A stretch of 50,038 nucleotides of DNA from Parcubacteria group bacterium (GTDB lineage: Bacteria; Patescibacteriota; Patescibacteriia; Buchananbacterales; UBA6539), in NCBI GenBank assembly GCA_002687175.1, contig NYZP01000023.1, positions 1 through 50,038 of the forward strand. Reading direction: 5' to 3'. Numbering within the stretch: position 1 is the stretch's first letter; the number at the start of each line of letters is the position of its first letter. The notes beneath the pieces were generated by a model. It was not told the origin of the DNA and did no database searches. It saw only the letters and a list, made by a program, of their open reading frames with translations. Below, in pieces: positions 13,816 to 43,997 of the stretch. The translations under genes were made by a program, and so were the position numbers.

Positions 13816-13890
13816 AATTGGGTACCCAACAAAATGTTCGGTACCATGTTCTAATAGTTTTAATGTATCATCTTTAATCTCAATTCTTGT

Positions 13891-17290
<3,400 letters not shown>

Positions 17291-18721: not shown

Positions 18722-18809
18722 TGGTGCCGGGAACAGGAATCGAACCTGCACAGGATTACTCCTACTTGGTCCTAAACCAAGCGCGTCTACCTAGTTCCGC
18801 CATCCCGGC
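18722..18809 (-). tRNA. tRNA-Leu(UAG), class II, CCA encoded
   Basis: GCCGGGATGGCGGAACTAGGTAGACGCGCTTGGTTTAGGACCAAGTAGGAGTAATCCTGTGCAGGTTCGATTCCTGTTCCCGGCACCA. The anticodon loop is TTTAGGA. Confidence 0.9.
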
Positions 18810-18994: not shown

Positions 18995-19282
18995 ATGCGA
19001 ATATTTTATGTTTACATAATTACTAACAAAACTAATCACGTCTTTTATATTGGAATCACTAATGATTTAATCAAACGAACCTTTGAACACAAAAGCAAAA
19101 TAAATCCAGGCTTCACGAATAAATACAACGTCAACAAATTGGTTTATTTTGAAGACTTCCTGAGCCCCTATGAAGCAATTAGACGAGAAAAAGAAATTAA
19201 GGGTTGGCTAAGAAAGAAAAAAATTAAACTAATCAGGGCTAACAATCCTGCCTATATTGATTTATCGCAAGACTGGTACTGA
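18995..19282 (+). CDS. GIY-YIG nuclease family protein
   Basis: 95 aa with FYVYIITNK...VFYIGITNDLIKRTFEHK...EAIRREKEIKGW. Confidence 0.85.
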   Translation: MRIFYVYIITNKTNHVFYIGITNDLIKRTFEHKSKINPGFTNKYNVNKLVYFEDFLSPYEAIRREKEIKGWLRKKKIKLIRANNPAYIDLSQDWY

Positions 19283-19383
19283 GATCCTTCATTCGTCCCG
19301 CAGTCGCGGGACTCCTTCAGGATGACAGGCCCTCTGGGTTTGTCATCCTGAGGCAGGTCGCCAAAGGCGACCAACGAAGGATC
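19283..19383. repeat. 101-nt multi-hairpin palindromic element
   Basis: Outer stem gatccttc...gaaggatc. Inner hairpins are tcccgcagtcgcggga, ttcaggatgaca...tgtcatcctgagg and gtcgccaaaggcgac. Confidence 0.7.
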
Positions 19384-19426
19384 TCTGAATCTAATCAACA
19401 AACGTTAATTATTAACAAACAAGTCT

Positions 19427-32569: not shown

Positions 32570-32815
32570 TTTAGAACTTTTCCCAATGCGCGTCGCTCCG
32601 CGACGAATTCAGACGGAACTGGTGCGCCGAAGCGCGCGGATTTGTCACGAACCAAGGGGTTCGTTCCAAACTTTTTGACGAAGGAGCTGATTTCCTTTAA
32701 ATCTGCGGATGATGTCAAAAAGTTGGCTTGCGCCGACCCGAACGAAGTCGCAAAACGCCGTAGCGGAAGCGACACCACATAAGCAGAGATGAAAACGAGG
32801 AGAGGGGTTGTGCGA
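32570..32815 (-). other. G+C-rich, hairpin-dense block of unknown nature
   Basis: The composition contrasts sharply with the flanks. Minus-strand hairpins are GCGCGC-UUCG-GCGCAC, ACGAACC-CCUU-GGUUCGU and CGUCGC-GGA-GCGACG. Confidence 0.4.
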
Positions 32816-33056
32816 GACAAAGTTCTCCTTCAACCCCAGGGGCACGACATCTAGGACAATTCATAGGTAGTGTTTCCTTAGGTTTCACCTCATCATCTTT
32901 AGGTTTTGATATTACTCTAAGACACTTTTGACAAAGTTCTCCTTCAACCCCAGGGGCACGACATCTAGGACAATTCATAGGTAGTGCTTCTGAGTCCTCA
33001 TTATCATCAGCTAAATCAAAATTTTCAATACCTCCACTGATTTCTCTGCTTATCAT
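32715..33056 (-). CDS. small zinc-ribbon protein with internal duplication; 3' end uncertain
   Basis: MISREISGG...LPMNCPRCRAPGVEGELCQKC...LPMNCPRCRAPGVEGELC, after which the frame runs into the G+C-rich block. Confidence 0.4.
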   Translation of the reverse strand: MISREISGGIENFDLADDNEDSEALPMNCPRCRAPGVEGELCQKCLRVISKPKDDEVKPKETLPMNCPRCRAPGVEGELCLAQPLSSFSSLLMWCRFRYGVLRLRSGRRKPTF

Positions 33057-35556: not shown

Positions 35557-35588
35557 AAAAAAGATCCCCTGTCTGGGGATGTTTTTTA
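35557..35588. terminator. bidirectional intrinsic terminator
   Basis: A-run, then atcccc tgtct ggggat, then gtttttt. Confidence 0.65.
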
Positions 35589-35636
35589 ATGGAGCGGGCC
35601 GCCAAAGGCGAGCCTCGCTTCTTAATAAAAATGTAA

Positions 35637-35711
35637 TGGAGCGGGTGACCGGATTCGAACCGGCGATCTCTTCCTTGGCAAGGAAGCATTCTACCACTGA
35701 ACTACACCCGC
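35637..35711 (-). tRNA. tRNA-Gly(GCC), CCA encoded
   Basis: GCGGGTGTAGTTCAGTGGTAGAATGCTTCCTTGCCAAGGAAGAGATCGCCGGTTCGAATCCGGTCACCCGCTCCA. Confidence 0.92.
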
Positions 35712-35753: not shown

Positions 35754-35823
35754 TGATAGCTTCCTTGATAAGGAAGCATTCGGACCCTGTCCCGATGGAT
35801 ATCGGGGACTGAACTACACCCGC
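35754..35823 (-). pseudogene. tRNA-Gly 5'-half look-alike G1 (anticodon-position triplet ATC)
   Basis: GCGGGTGTAGTTCAGT[CCCCGATATCCATCGGGACAGGGTCC]GAATGCTTCCTTATCAAGGAAGCTATCA. No T-arm or 3' acceptor strand follows. Confidence 0.75.
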
Positions 35824-35866: not shown

Positions 35867-35936
35867 TGATGGCTTCCTTAGTAAGGAAGCATTCGGACCC
35901 TGTCCCGATGGATATCGGGGACTGAACTACACCCGC
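35867..35936 (-). pseudogene. tRNA-Gly 5'-half look-alike G2 (triplet ACT)
   Basis: Same architecture and the same 26-nt insert as G1. The anticodon loop is TTACTAA. Confidence 0.75.
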
Positions 35937-35979: not shown

Positions 35980-36058
35980 TGATAGCTTCCTTGGCAAGTA
36001 AGCATTCGGACCCTGTCCCGATGGCGATCGGGAACTGAACCAACCAAATCATGCCCGC
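35980..36058 (-). pseudogene. tRNA-Gly 5'-half look-alike G3 (triplet GCC, degenerate acceptor)
   Basis: GCGGGCATGATTTGGTTGGTTCAGTTCCCGATCGCCATCGGGACAGGGTCCGAATGCTTACTTGCCAAGGAAGCTATCA. Confidence 0.65.
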
Positions 36059-36105
36059 TTGAGCTACAAAAAACAGTATAGCAAAAATAATAAAAAAATC
36101 AAGTG

Positions 36106-36567
36106 CTAGTTCCTTAGTTGGTATAAAGCAATACCAGCAGCCGTCGCAACGTTCAATGAATCTTTTTTACCCAGCATTGGTATGGTAATTATGTCATCAG
36201 CTAATTCAATGGTACTCTGATTAACACCAGTAAGCTCATTACCAACAATCAAGGCAAGAGGAAATTTTGGCTTAAATTTTGGTAAAGCTTTATTTTTCTC
36301 ACCAGTCTCTAAAACAACAATTTTAACACCTTGCTTCTTTAATTTTTTTATTAAAGTATTGGTCTGTCGTTTTCGCTCCCAATCTATCCACTCCTCTGCT
36401 CCTAAAGCGGTTTTAGAAATTTGATCTCGTGGCGGAAAACCAGTATAACCACAGAGATAAATTTTGGTAACATCAAAAACATCAGCTGTCCGAAACATCG
36501 AACCGACATTGAACAGACTCCTAACATTTTGTATAATTAAATAAATTTCCTTTTTCTTTATTGACAT
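36106..36567 (-). CDS. SPOUT (SpoU/TrmH-TrmL-like) RNA 2'-O-methyltransferase
   Basis: 153 aa with NVGSMFRTAD, LIVGNELTG and SLNVATAAGIALY. Confidence 0.8.
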   Translation of the reverse strand: MSIKKKEIYLIIQNVRSLFNVGSMFRTADVFDVTKIYLCGYTGFPPRDQISKTALGAEEWIDWERKRQTNTLIKKLKKQGVKIVVLETGEKNKALPKFKPKFPLALIVGNELTGVNQSTIELADDIITIPMLGKKDSLNVATAAGIALYQLRN

Positions 36568-36623
36568 ATAGACTTTTTTATCTTAATATAATTAACGATT
36601 GTCGACAAGAATACCTGCCCTTT

Positions 36624-36680
36624 CAGTTAACTCGCCGTAGACAGCTTTGCTGTCGACACGCTGGACTTAAAGATTTAGTT
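36624..36680 (+). pseudogene. tRNA-Leu(UAA) 5'-half look-alike L2 (decayed)
   Basis: ...cagttaact[cgccgtagacagctttgctgtc]gacacgctggacttaaa|gatttagtta. Confidence 0.55.
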
Positions 36681-36750
36681 AGATATGTTTAATCAAGGTC
36701 AGTAAAGATAGCCGAAGGCAGATATACAAAGCAAAAAAATCAGTAACTAT

Positions 36751-36797
36751 GCCCAGGTGATTGGAACTCGCCGAAGGCGGACACGCTGGACTTAAAG
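36751..36797 (+). pseudogene. tRNA-Leu(UAA) 5'-half look-alike L1
   Basis: gcccaggtgattggaact[cgccgaaggcg]gacacgctggacttaaa. It diverges from the true gene after the anticodon. Confidence 0.7.
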
Positions 36798-36811
36798 ATT
36801 TAGTTAAACAT

Positions 36812-36899
36812 GCCCGGGTGGTGGAACTGGTAGACACGCTGGACTTAAAATCCAGTGGATGTATAATCCGTGCGGGTTCGAGTCCCGCCCCGGGCACCA
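36812..36899 (+). tRNA. tRNA-Leu(UAA), class II, CCA encoded
   Basis: GCCCGGGTGGTGGAACTGGTAGACACGCTGGACTTAAAATCCAGTGGATGTATAATCCGTGCGGGTTCGAGTCCCGCCCCGGGCACCA. Confidence 0.9.
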
Positions 36900-36917
36900 A
36901 TTAATAACTGTAAATAT

Positions 36918-37139
36918 ATGTCTGAAAAAAACAATGGGGGAAGAGGCTCCGAATACCACGGCCCTGAAGATAAAATTCCTGAAGGTTTGGAAGAAGGTAT
37001 TGATGGCCTTCTTGATAAAGCTAAAACTAGTGAAGCTGGCAAAGAAACCCCGGAAAAAGAAATGACCGAGCTTGAGTTTAAAGTTGACCAAAGGGTTTGG
37101 ATGTTAAGAAATAATAAAGGGAAAAAAGGGTCTATCTAG
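36918..37139 (+). CDS. acidic hypothetical protein, possibly the 5' part of a frameshifted gene
   Basis: MSEKNNGGRGSEYHGPEDKIPEGLEEG.... The ATG at 36918 lies after the tRNA; the ORF-track start at 36870 lies inside the tRNA. Confidence 0.45.
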   Translation: MSEKNNGGRGSEYHGPEDKIPEGLEEGIDGLLDKAKTSEAGKETPEKEMTELEFKVDQRVWMLRNNKGKKGSI

Positions 37140-42677: not shown

Positions 42678-43997
42678 ATGTTTATCTTCGATTTCAGTTG
42701 GGAAATTCAACATTTCTTAAATCAATTCTGGCACCAGATAAATTTTTTACTGTTAATTATTTTTGTGCTGACCGGTTATTTAAGTTATAAAAATCCTGCT
42801 TATGCCGTTGGTCTAACCATAATACTACTGCCAACTTATTTATTTCGCTCATCCATTCTTGGAATACCTATTACTTTTTTAGAAATTTTGATCTTAACTA
42901 CTTTCCTTGGCTGGCTTTTAAAATCATACCTAAACGGTCAAGCCAGAAGTTGCTTTCAGTCCAGCTTCTACTGGCCAATTAGCATTGTGCTTATAGCAGC
43001 GACAATTTCTGTATTATTAGCACCGGACCTGAGACAAGCCGCCGGTATCTGGAAAGCCTATTTTATTGAACCAATTTTATTTTTCTTGGTAGCAACTAAA
43101 GTTTGGCGAACAGAACCGGGTCAAAAAATTATTTTATGGTCGTTAGGAATTTCCACTCTAACCATATCTCTTCTTGGTATTTACCAAAAATTTACCGGCT
43201 TTGGTATTTTTGAACCAGCCTGGATGGCCGCCGAACACCGCCGAGTAACTTCAATTTTTAGTTCACCAAATGCCGTTGGCCTCTATCTGTCTCCGATAGT
43301 AATGATTTACGTTGGTTGGCTAATTAGTGAAATAAAAAATTTAAAAAAAATTATTTTAAAACTACTAATTATTCTCCCCGCTTTAATTGCTATTATATTT
43401 ACAGTGTCCCGTGGTACTTGGCTGGGACTAATAGCAGCATCCATATTCATAGCTTTTTTTGCCTGCCCGCCGAAGTCACGCGAAGCGGGACGTAGGTGGG
43501 GTTGGAGTAAAAAATTAACTGCATTAATTGTTACTATAGTAATCTTTATAACGTTACTTATTCCTCTAAGTAGAAATCTACTGCTTCTGGCTATAACTTT
43601 CAAAGATACCTCCGGACAAAATAGACTTGAGCTGTATAGTATGAGTTATAATCATCTTTCTGGAAGTATTAAAGATTTTATTTTTGGTGCCGGCATTGGT
43701 GGCTTTGCTCAAATTCAAGACCAGCAACGCCAACCTTTAAAATTAGAGGCTTTGCTGTACCCTCATAATATATTTTTAAATTTTTGGTTAGAAATTGGAC
43801 TACTGGGCCTAATTGCTTTTGGCTGGCTAAAGATAAAATTTTTCAAAATTGGATTTCAAAATCTAAAAAACAATAAATGGCTTAGTTTGGGAATAATGGC
43901 TGCGATGATTACGATTATAACTCATGGCTTAATTGACGTTCCCTATTTTAAAAATGATTTAGCTGTTTTGTTTTGGTTGTTAGTTGGTCTAGTCTAG
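42678..43997 (+). CDS. O-antigen ligase (Wzy_C)-family membrane protein
   Basis: 439 aa, polytopic, with an FTVSRGTWLGL loop. Confidence 0.7.
   Translation: MFIFDFSWEIQHFLNQFWHQINFLLLIIFVLTGYLSYKNPAYAVGLTIILLPTYLFRSSILGIPITFLEILILTTFLGWLLKSYLNGQARSCFQSSFYWPISIVLIAATISVLLAPDLRQAAGIWKAYFIEPILFFLVATKVWRTEPGQKIILWSLGISTLTISLLGIYQKFTGFGIFEPAWMAAEHRRVTSIFSSPNAVGLYLSPIVMIYVGWLISEIKNLKKIILKLLIILPALIAIIFTVSRGTWLGLIAASIFIAFFACPPKSREAGRRWGWSKKLTALIVTIVIFITLLIPLSRNLLLLAITFKDTSGQNRLELYSMSYNHLSGSIKDFIFGAGIGGFAQIQDQQRQPLKLEALLYPHNIFLNFWLEIGLLGLIAFGWLKIKFFKIGFQNLKNNKWLSLGIMAAMITIITHGLIDVPYFKNDLAVLFWLLVGLV

Follow-up and report, generated by a model that had tools for sequence, protein, structure and literature searches.

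In bacteria, few genes are usually as stable or as sharply bounded as those for transfer RNA. The integration of mobile elements leaves partial tRNA genes and attL/attR duplicates behind (PMC9897764), that is, truncated same-strand copies beside an intact gene, which are non-functional and can confuse annotation. These remnants are the nearest described phenomenon to the subject of this report, two arrays of truncated tRNA copies in a 50,038-nucleotide (nt) stretch of DNA from a Parcubacteria group bacterium (assembly GCA_002687175.1, contig NYZP01000023.1; hereafter the window). One array precedes tRNA-Leu(UAA) and the other tRNA-Gly(GCC), and in every Leu and Gly copy a G+C-rich hairpin replaces GGTA at the same position of the D-loop. 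An earlier note on this DNA, written by a model from the sequence, had drawn attention to truncated 5' copies of two unrelated tRNAs with a hairpin at the same D-loop site, and the alignments bear this out; the possibility it raised, that the inserts would prove to sit at different positions, did not materialize. On balance, we read the arrays as remnants of partial tRNA self-duplication with palindromic inserts.

Tandem 5' copies in front of two tRNA genes

By alignment, the Leu array consists of three units of 59–76 nt, set end to end with no spacers, and the intact tRNA-Leu(UAA) is its final and sole functional unit (Table 1). L1, the copy adjoining the tRNA, has in common with it an exact 17-mer, GACACGCTGGACTTAAA (36780-36796 in L1 and 36833-36849 in tRNA-Leu; BLAST E 2e-4 in the 50-kb window), as well as the 5' acceptor and D-stem strand (GCCCAGGTGATTGGAACT in L1, GCCCGGGTGGTGGAACT in the tRNA), while its D-loop has CGCCGAAGGCG (36769-36779) in place of GGTA. 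The same 17-mer recurs in L2 at 36655-36671, where the acceptor and D-stem 5' strands are recognizable in the alignment and a 22-nt hairpin insert, CGCCGTAGACAGCTTTGCTGTC (36633-36654), occupies the same place as the insert of L1. Both replacements had been proposed in the earlier note and hold in the alignments. Between L1 and L2 lies a decayed middle copy, which is 70% identical to L1 as a repeat family (D5) and has 35 of 64 aligned columns identical. Because of indels between its units, the Leu array falls under the threshold of Tandem Repeats Finder (TRF).

After the anticodon, L1 and L2 both continue with GATTTAGTTA, which had been taken for a non-tRNA continuation following truncation right after the anticodon. 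This part of the earlier description has to be revised. GATTTAGTTA aligns with AATCCAGTGG of tRNA-Leu (6/10 identical) and corresponds to the 3' strand of the anticodon stem plus the start of the variable region; its two C-to-T changes leave the anticodon stem paired, as G-U. Since it is a diverged anticodon-stem 3' strand, the Leu copies run through the anticodon stem and end near nt 48, not at 37/38. L1 and L2 thus have two derived characters in common, GATTTAGTTA and an insert that starts with CGCCG(A/T)AG.

The Gly copies repeat every 113 nt (TRF score 399, 2.5 copies, 84% matches; family D1), and the hairpin that replaces GGTA is 26 nt long, with three matches against 0.00 expected. G1-G3 have one insert in common, and G3 carries a further 9-nt insertion within its acceptor/D region. 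G1 and G2 are identical at 62 of 64 positions, both differences falling in the anticodon, whereas their spacers are identical at 29 of 49 (Fisher p = 4e-7); the Gly spacers show mutual homology (p = 0.0005-0.02) at about 40% divergence. Downstream of tRNA-Gly lies a 3' fragment made of a hairpin and CCCGCTCCA (35590-35617). CCCGCTCCATTA is a 12-nt direct repeat of the tRNA-Gly 3' end, its copies being 47 nt apart, and the fold of the trailer has a z-score of -2.9.

Table 1. Coordinates of the arrays, the intervening gene and the nested loci of relatives
Feature	Position	Strand	Basis
Intact tRNA-Leu(UAA), encoded CCA	36812..36899	+	ARAGORN; Rfam tRNA 62.1 bits
L1, tRNA-Leu copy (nt 1 to approximately nt 48)	36751..36811	+	alignment, BLAST
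Decayed middle Leu copy with AGCCGAAGGCAG hairpin (36710-36721)	36690..36750	+	repeat family D5, alignment
L2, most promoter-proximal and most decayed Leu copy	36617..36689	+	alignment, BLAST
Sigma-70-like promoter TTGACA-17-TAATAT, presumed start of Leu unit	36561..36589	+	motif, kept in relatives; activity inferred
Minimal SpoU/TrmH-type SPOUT methyltransferase, 153 aa	36106..36567	-	Pfam SpoU_methylase E 1.3e-33
Sigma-70-like promoter TTGATT-16-TATACT with TG extension, presumed start of Gly unit	36075..36102	-	kept in relatives
G3, promoter-proximal and most decayed Gly copy; hairpin TCCCGATCGCCATCGGGACAGGGTCC, anticodon GCC	35986..36058	-	alignment
G2, copy of tRNA-Gly nt 1-43; GGTA replaced by CCCCGATATCCATCGGGACAGGGTCC; anticodon ACT	35873..35936	-	alignment
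G1, as G2 but anticodon ATC	35760..35823	-	alignment
Intact tRNA-Gly(GCC), encoded CCA	35637..35711	-	ARAGORN, Rfam
Trailer: stable hairpin and second copy of tRNA-Gly 3' end, CCCGCTCCATTA	35587..35636	-	repeat family D9
Bidirectional intrinsic-terminator-like hairpin closing Gly unit	35564..35580		predicted
Nested loci in relatives	L010 2760-2950, 3520-3775; L097 1599-1760; L098 1380-1700, 2430-2720; L095 2340-2680		

The arrays are not an artefact, because four assemblies agree base for base and unitigs tile the region. Contigs of these four independent assemblies are 100% identical over the parts of the locus that they cover, a contig from a separate JGI sample (L004) spans both arrays at 100% identity, and unitigs from three further runs tile the locus with no variants, their depth rising only where units share words. 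The contigs and runs containing the locus come from metagenomes of marine origin and of seawater. Breaks within the Gly array do occur in some assemblies (L005, L006 and L007), as might be expected of a chimera or other artefact of a repeat-rich metagenomic contig; against the agreement just described, the chance of such an artefact is negligible.

None of L1, L2 and G1-G3 gives an Rfam tRNA match even at E<=10, and only the three true tRNAs of the window score (gathering score of RF00005: 29 bits). The copies lack the cloverleaf with both acceptor strands and T-arm that defines the class, and their entire 3' half is absent. Known RNA families in the window, as judged by Rfam, are tRNA and rRNA only. 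A split or intron-containing tRNA was considered and rejected: BLAST found no 3'-half copies in the window, and removal of the insert leaves only a 5' fragment. No bulge-helix-bulge motif was identified, although no search was aimed at this motif or at a splicing enzyme. A CRISPR-like repeat-spacer array was set aside as well, the Gly spacers being mutually homologous and the Leu units having no spacers. In their head-to-tail order, common period and homologous unit content, the arrays correspond to tandem duplications. Exact-pattern scans for the pseudo-copies found no match in genome representatives or viral contigs, a gapped scan for D-loop-interrupted tRNA-Gly yielded nothing beyond normal tRNAs and chance matches, and none of the RNA sequencing runs searched contains the locus.

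Consensus promoters occur only at the outer edges of the arrays, before L2 and before G3, with none inside, and a terminator-like hairpin follows the Gly 3' fragment. Both promoters and their flanks are conserved in relatives, where the 5' end of the tRNA, or of an outer tRNA, follows directly; homology also links the upstream flank of L2 with the sequence that flanks the 5' end of the outer tRNA-Leu in three related loci (L010, L097 and L098; here and below, three-digit numbers designate loci on other contigs). L2 and G3 therefore occupy the ancestral start of the tRNA gene, and the intact tRNA stands further in. Decay rises toward the promoter: L1 is better preserved than L2 and the middle copy, and G1 and G2 are better preserved than G3. 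Tandem duplication of a 5' portion necessarily gives this layout, since only the last copy adjoins the 3' half, and the derived characters common to L1 and L2 and the insert common to G1-G3 imply one insertion per array, followed by re-duplication.

The series of events that we propose is as follows. In both tRNA genes, the front part, which starts a few bases ahead of +1 and reaches roughly nt 45-50, would have been duplicated in tandem inside its own transcription unit. Only the last copy would be contiguous with the 3' half, and hence only the last copy would yield a tRNA; the promoter-proximal copies would be pseudo-copies by construction, free to decay. In one early copy per array, a small G+C-rich palindrome may have been inserted into the D-loop, just 5' of G18G19, and re-duplication of the copy bearing it would have given the three units that resemble tRNA-Leu and the three that resemble tRNA-Gly. 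Transcription probably starts at the ancestral promoter and covers the entire array, making it a long pre-tRNA leader that RNase P would remove, and the upstream copies would have no function.

The copies might otherwise be attachment-site (att) scars of repeated tRNA-targeting integrations that were later deleted, since partial tRNA genes beside intact ones are a known footprint of integration (PMC9897764), and the orientation and order of the tRNAs around the methyltransferase gene vary among relatives, so rearrangements do occur. We consider this unlikely. The copies are 5' parts whereas the usual scars are 3' parts, the units lie only 0-49 nt apart, the homologous Gly spacers imply amplification in place, no integrase or transposase is present among the ten window open reading frames (ORFs) scanned or beside the arrays, and no viral contig has either pseudo-copy. 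A direct repeat bounding a kb-scale element with an integrase, which would define an att site, does not describe these arrays, in which units are 60-113 nt apart and no integrase is found in the ORFs scanned.

Several further features of the window may be recorded here. The Leu promoter overlaps the start codon of the methyltransferase gene on the opposite strand. A 20-nt inverted repeat (75% complementary; 36551-36570 and 36915-36934) encloses the Leu array and its tRNA; its two arms belong to the start regions of small, divergent genes (TATATGTC...AAA), and we judge the repeat to be a by-product of similar translation starts. The third tRNA of the window, tRNA-Leu(UAG) (18722-18809, minus strand; ARAGORN, Rfam), has no self-copies. 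About 190 nt upstream of it and directly 3' of an ORF for a 95-aa GIY-YIG nuclease (18995-19282) lies a G+C-rich block of nested inverted repeats (19283-19400) with the hairpins GGTCGCCAAAGGCGACC and TCCCGCAGTCGCGGGA. Other long-period tandem arrays are rare in the window (TRF). A 113-aa ORF (32715-33056) has an internal duplication about 114 nt apart, with the peptide PMNCPRCRAPGVEGELC twice and an identical 20-mer at 32827 and 32941, which is a mid-size tandem duplication in coding sequence, and positions 1-91 hold three copies of a 30-nt tandem unit (98% matches). The 23S rRNA gene (13889-17290) measures 3402 nt against a model of 2925 positions, the extra ~480 nt probably representing an insertion or intervening sequence.

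Relatives of the locus and the intervening methyltransferase gene

The gene between the two arrays encodes a protein matched over its full length by Pfam SpoU_methylase (116.6 against a cut-off of 29.7). It scores below every NCBIfam equivalog cut-off (RlmB 96.5/160, TrmH 76.2/227, TrmL 36.2/191), and its best solved relatives are TrmH enzymes, with Aquifex TrmH (1ZJR) at the top. The protein is a minimal SpoU-domain enzyme nearest to RlmB and TrmH and only weakly matching TrmL. Of the families named for it in the earlier note, TrmH (together with RlmB) is supported as the nearest and TrmL is not, with no equivalog cut-off reached for any.

The protein has 1223 homologues (E<=1e-10), and the names under which these are listed put the organism among the Patescibacteria, close to Buchananbacteria. 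The position of the gene between divergent tRNA-Leu(UAA) and tRNA-Gly(GCC) genes is kept in relatives down to about 55% identity, and the arrangement tRNA-Leu(-)/SPOUT(+)/tRNA-Gly is ancestral in the clade. The closest relatives with the same synteny have no arrays (L008, L013 and L015, with 78%, 76% and 72% SPOUT identity, respectively), and similar remnants are found beside tRNA-Arg, -Pro and -Lys genes that do not adjoin a SPOUT gene. The methyltransferase gene is a syntenic neighbour outside the arrays. The functional link between the two, which the earlier note had put forward as a speculation to be given up if close relatives lacked the arrays while conserving the methyltransferase, is not supported and, by that criterion, refuted, because the synteny is ancestral and the close relatives are without arrays.

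The same evidence bears on the more specific idea that the look-alike RNAs, having no G18 target, act as decoys or regulators of the SPOUT protein, or as antisense copies in its mRNA leader. The gene does lie between both arrays, its nearest characterized relatives include TrmH, which forms Gm18, the copies are without G18G19, and the Leu array occupies the whole space from the SPOUT start to tRNA-Leu. Against this stand the ancestral synteny with array-less relatives at 72-78% identity, the like remnants at tRNA-Arg, -Pro and -Lys elsewhere, and a protein that scores under every equivalog cut-off; we give the idea very little credence. In the self-duplication reading, the gene would be a conserved neighbour with no part in the process. 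In one of the array-less relatives, L013, tRNA-Leu(UAA) is preceded at a distance of about 47 nt by a hairpin (GGCCGCCGAAGGCGACC, 2925-2945) that lies outside the predicted promoter and has the same core as the L1 insert. This hairpin could be what remains of a lost copy, or it could be an element of independent origin.

After 170 further loci had been collected around SPOUT homologues, fragments of tRNA genes beside the intact gene were surveyed at 56 Patescibacteria tRNA genes, with flanks swapped between loci as a control. Of the 56 tRNA genes, 18, or about a third, have self-fragments within 500 nt, compared with 3 of the 56 after swapping (Fisher p = 5e-4). Almost always the fragment shares the strand of the intact gene; 5' pieces occur on its upstream side and 3' pieces on its downstream side (p = 4e-4). 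This polarity is what would be expected if partial duplications overlapped one end of the gene and selection retained the intact copy. G+C-rich hairpins in the D-arm region recur in many of the 5' pieces, replacing TGG in L021, after nt 12 in L017, after nt 13 in L025, right after G18G19 in L062 and L044, and as a D-loop insert in L098. The duplication process seems to be tRNA-gene-specific and common in Patescibacteria, where intact tRNAs would be left among the pieces of their own older copies.

Some relatives show a more elaborate state, in which one tRNA gene is nested in another. In L010, L097 and L098, an intact tRNA-Leu stands at the anticodon-arm position of an outer tRNA-Leu, and in L010, L095 and L098 an intact tRNA-Gly lies within the T-loop of an outer tRNA-Gly. 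A bracketing helix of 12-17 bp extends the acceptor stem in L010, L097, L098 and L017; in the first three, it measures 12-16 bp, starts with TCCCG and ends with CGGGA. Between L010 and L097, the helix differs at three positions per strand, all of them compensatory and none uncompensated. An encoded CCA is present on the outer 3' piece in L010, and only there in that locus, as well as on that of the tRNA-Gly remnant of L025, and the outer piece of L095 likewise ends in CCA. Acceptor-extending helices of at least 13 bp occur only at tRNAs with self-fragments; the window has none. The persistence of orthologous nested states across species argues for a constraint on the helix, although a mutational process that keeps palindromes perfect may be an alternative. 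Neither nested tRNA genes nor arrays of this kind turned up in a literature search on bacteria of the candidate phyla radiation (CPR).

These observations suggest a tentative broader view, which we regard as possible and less than probable. Nested tRNA units might be under selection, a hairpin-expanded older copy housing an intact tRNA at its D-, anticodon- or T-loop and a conserved helix bracketing that tRNA. Small palindromic elements that specifically colonize tRNA loops and 5' ends would feed such units. The window arrays would then be one state of this architecture and their copies functional leader elements. If so, nested units would represent a new pre-tRNA architecture needing its own maturation route, such as cutting of the leader-trailer helix, and could give two-piece tRNA-like by-products with CCA.

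A role for the window copies themselves is likewise a minority view in our assessment. They would be cis-acting elements of the pre-tRNA leader or a source of small RNAs resembling tRNA halves, and might insulate or guide the folding and processing of the downstream tRNA, or mimic an anticodon arm; the hairpin would remove G18G19 and so block completion of the tRNA fold. In favour of such a role, G1 and G2 have diverged much less in their pseudo-tRNA parts, where only the anticodon differs, than in their spacers, L1 and L2 maintain their anticodon stem by way of G-U pairs, the hairpin site recurs at the D-loop, and the nested units of relatives persist across species with compensated helices and retained outer acceptor and T stems and CCA. 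However, single units fold no better than shuffles (z-scores -0.03 to -1.05), and the fold of the whole Leu leader has z = -0.9; that of the Gly unit reaches z = -3.5, but this unit abounds in repeats and palindromic anticodon arms. We also rejected the proposal that each insert ties up the acceptor strand of its copy, since pairing probabilities in seven copies were not above those with shuffled inserts. In addition, L2, the middle copy and G3 are visibly decaying, the closest relatives are without arrays, and gene conversion between adjacent repeats could account for the identity of G1 and G2.

Hairpin inserts and the R1 element

A definable family of palindromic elements, here called R1, has the form (GCGGG)CTTG-CCCGCC-GAAG-(covarying stem-loop)-CGTAGG-CGGG. 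It occurs at no fewer than 120 loci in many bacterial phyla (L175-L294, from species-representative genomes), and copies in L191, L207, L218, L227, L259, L266, L270 and L097 may serve as examples. The covariance model is based on 51 copies from many phyla and is strict, its termini being fixed by the search pattern. The inner stem covaries, the 5' flank is conserved and there are several copies per genome; four bases before the core are conserved though absent from the search pattern. Among the matches listed, 21 of 126 R1 copies lie within 300 nt of a tRNA, an approximately 15-fold enrichment near tRNA genes, and about 12 abut the 5' end of tRNA-Gly or tRNA-Pro, where the first 4-6 nt of the tRNA (GCGGG) recur on the opposite flank of the element. 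At L292, a copy overlaps an RNase P RNA gene. We found no matching family in Rfam and no description of R1 in a literature search, and no associated transposase was seen.

The window contains one R1 copy, CCTGCCCGCCGAAGTCACGCGAAGCGGGACGTAGGTGGGG (43456-43504; 30 bits, E 7e-6), inside an ORF of the Wzy_C family (O-antigen-ligase-like; 42678-43997). Removal of 45 nt (43461-43505) preserves the reading frame of this ORF, so that the element amounts to 15 extra codons with no stop. In the CPR loci, the R1 model gives seven hits, of which five or six are inside tRNA remnants; by eye, a similar core motif is visible in L098, within a tRNA-Gly remnant.

The array inserts themselves were tried as members of R1 and rejected: L1 scores 3.9 bits (E 1.4 in 1.35 kb), and L2 and G1-G3 give no hit. 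The resemblance of the L1 insert to R1 (CGCC-GAAG-GCG) is a lead only. The stem of the Gly insert, TCCC(C)GAT...ATCGGGA, is also present in tRNA-remnant hairpins of L095, L098 and L069. The inserts are likely small palindromic elements by nature, and not by membership of R1.

Origin of the arrays and comparison with known systems

Partial self-duplication with palindromic inserts, the origin that we favour on balance, has to be set against several observations that it does not readily explain. The near identity of G1 and G2 between diverged spacers is not predicted by plain neutral decay and needs gene conversion or selection. Two independent inserts fell into one 4-nt site, and at least six other lineages show a D-arm bias; such recurrence at the D-loop would need a target preference or a selective filter. 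Simple tandem duplication also leaves the nested loci L010, L097 and L098 unexplained, whose leader-trailer helices change only by compensation, and the window inserts are not detectable members of R1, the palindrome family that was modelled.

If the arrays are only debris, they reveal a tRNA-gene-specific process of duplication and insertion in streamlined genomes. They are then also a practical trap for tRNA annotation, and they break metagenome assemblies, several contigs ending inside such arrays. If selection maintains the nested forms, which is what their compensatory changes suggest, there would be reason to suspect, in a major bacterial radiation, an undescribed route by which pre-tRNAs are built and matured.

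Compared with integration scars, the window copies are 5' portions, stacked two or three deep and 0-49 nt apart rather than separated by a kb-sized island; no integrase accompanies them in the ORFs scanned, they carry a D-loop hairpin, and they lie inside a transcription unit behind an ancestral promoter. The inserts resemble repetitive extragenic palindromes (REP/REPIN) and the Rickettsia palindromic elements, all of them small G+C-rich imperfect palindromes in an A+T-rich genome. R1 shares this character, with its covarying inner stem, conserved 5' flank, several copies per genome and in-frame copy in the window. As differences, the inserts of L1, L2 and G1-G3 do not score as members of R1, and no associated transposase was seen. 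To our knowledge, REP elements have not been described as favouring tRNA loops, or tRNA 5' ends at which GCGGG is duplicated. The outer tRNAs of the relatives recall the tRNA-like domain of transfer-messenger RNA (tmRNA), in which the anticodon arm is likewise replaced by a long helix.

The split, permuted and multi-intron forms that make up the disrupted tRNA genes in archaea and red algae are alike in having hairpin-like inserts at non-canonical sites, including the D-loop, and tRNA pieces flanked by complementary sequences (PMC4390854, PMC3978253). The window copies differ from them in that there are no matching 3' halves, removal of the insert restores no tRNA, the genome is bacterial and the intact gene stands alongside. 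The window arrays have no leader-trailer helix and in this are unlike rRNA precursors, whose leader-trailer helices (PMC11404451) find their likeness in the relatives (L010, L097, L098 and L017), with an acceptor-extending helix and its compensatory evolution.

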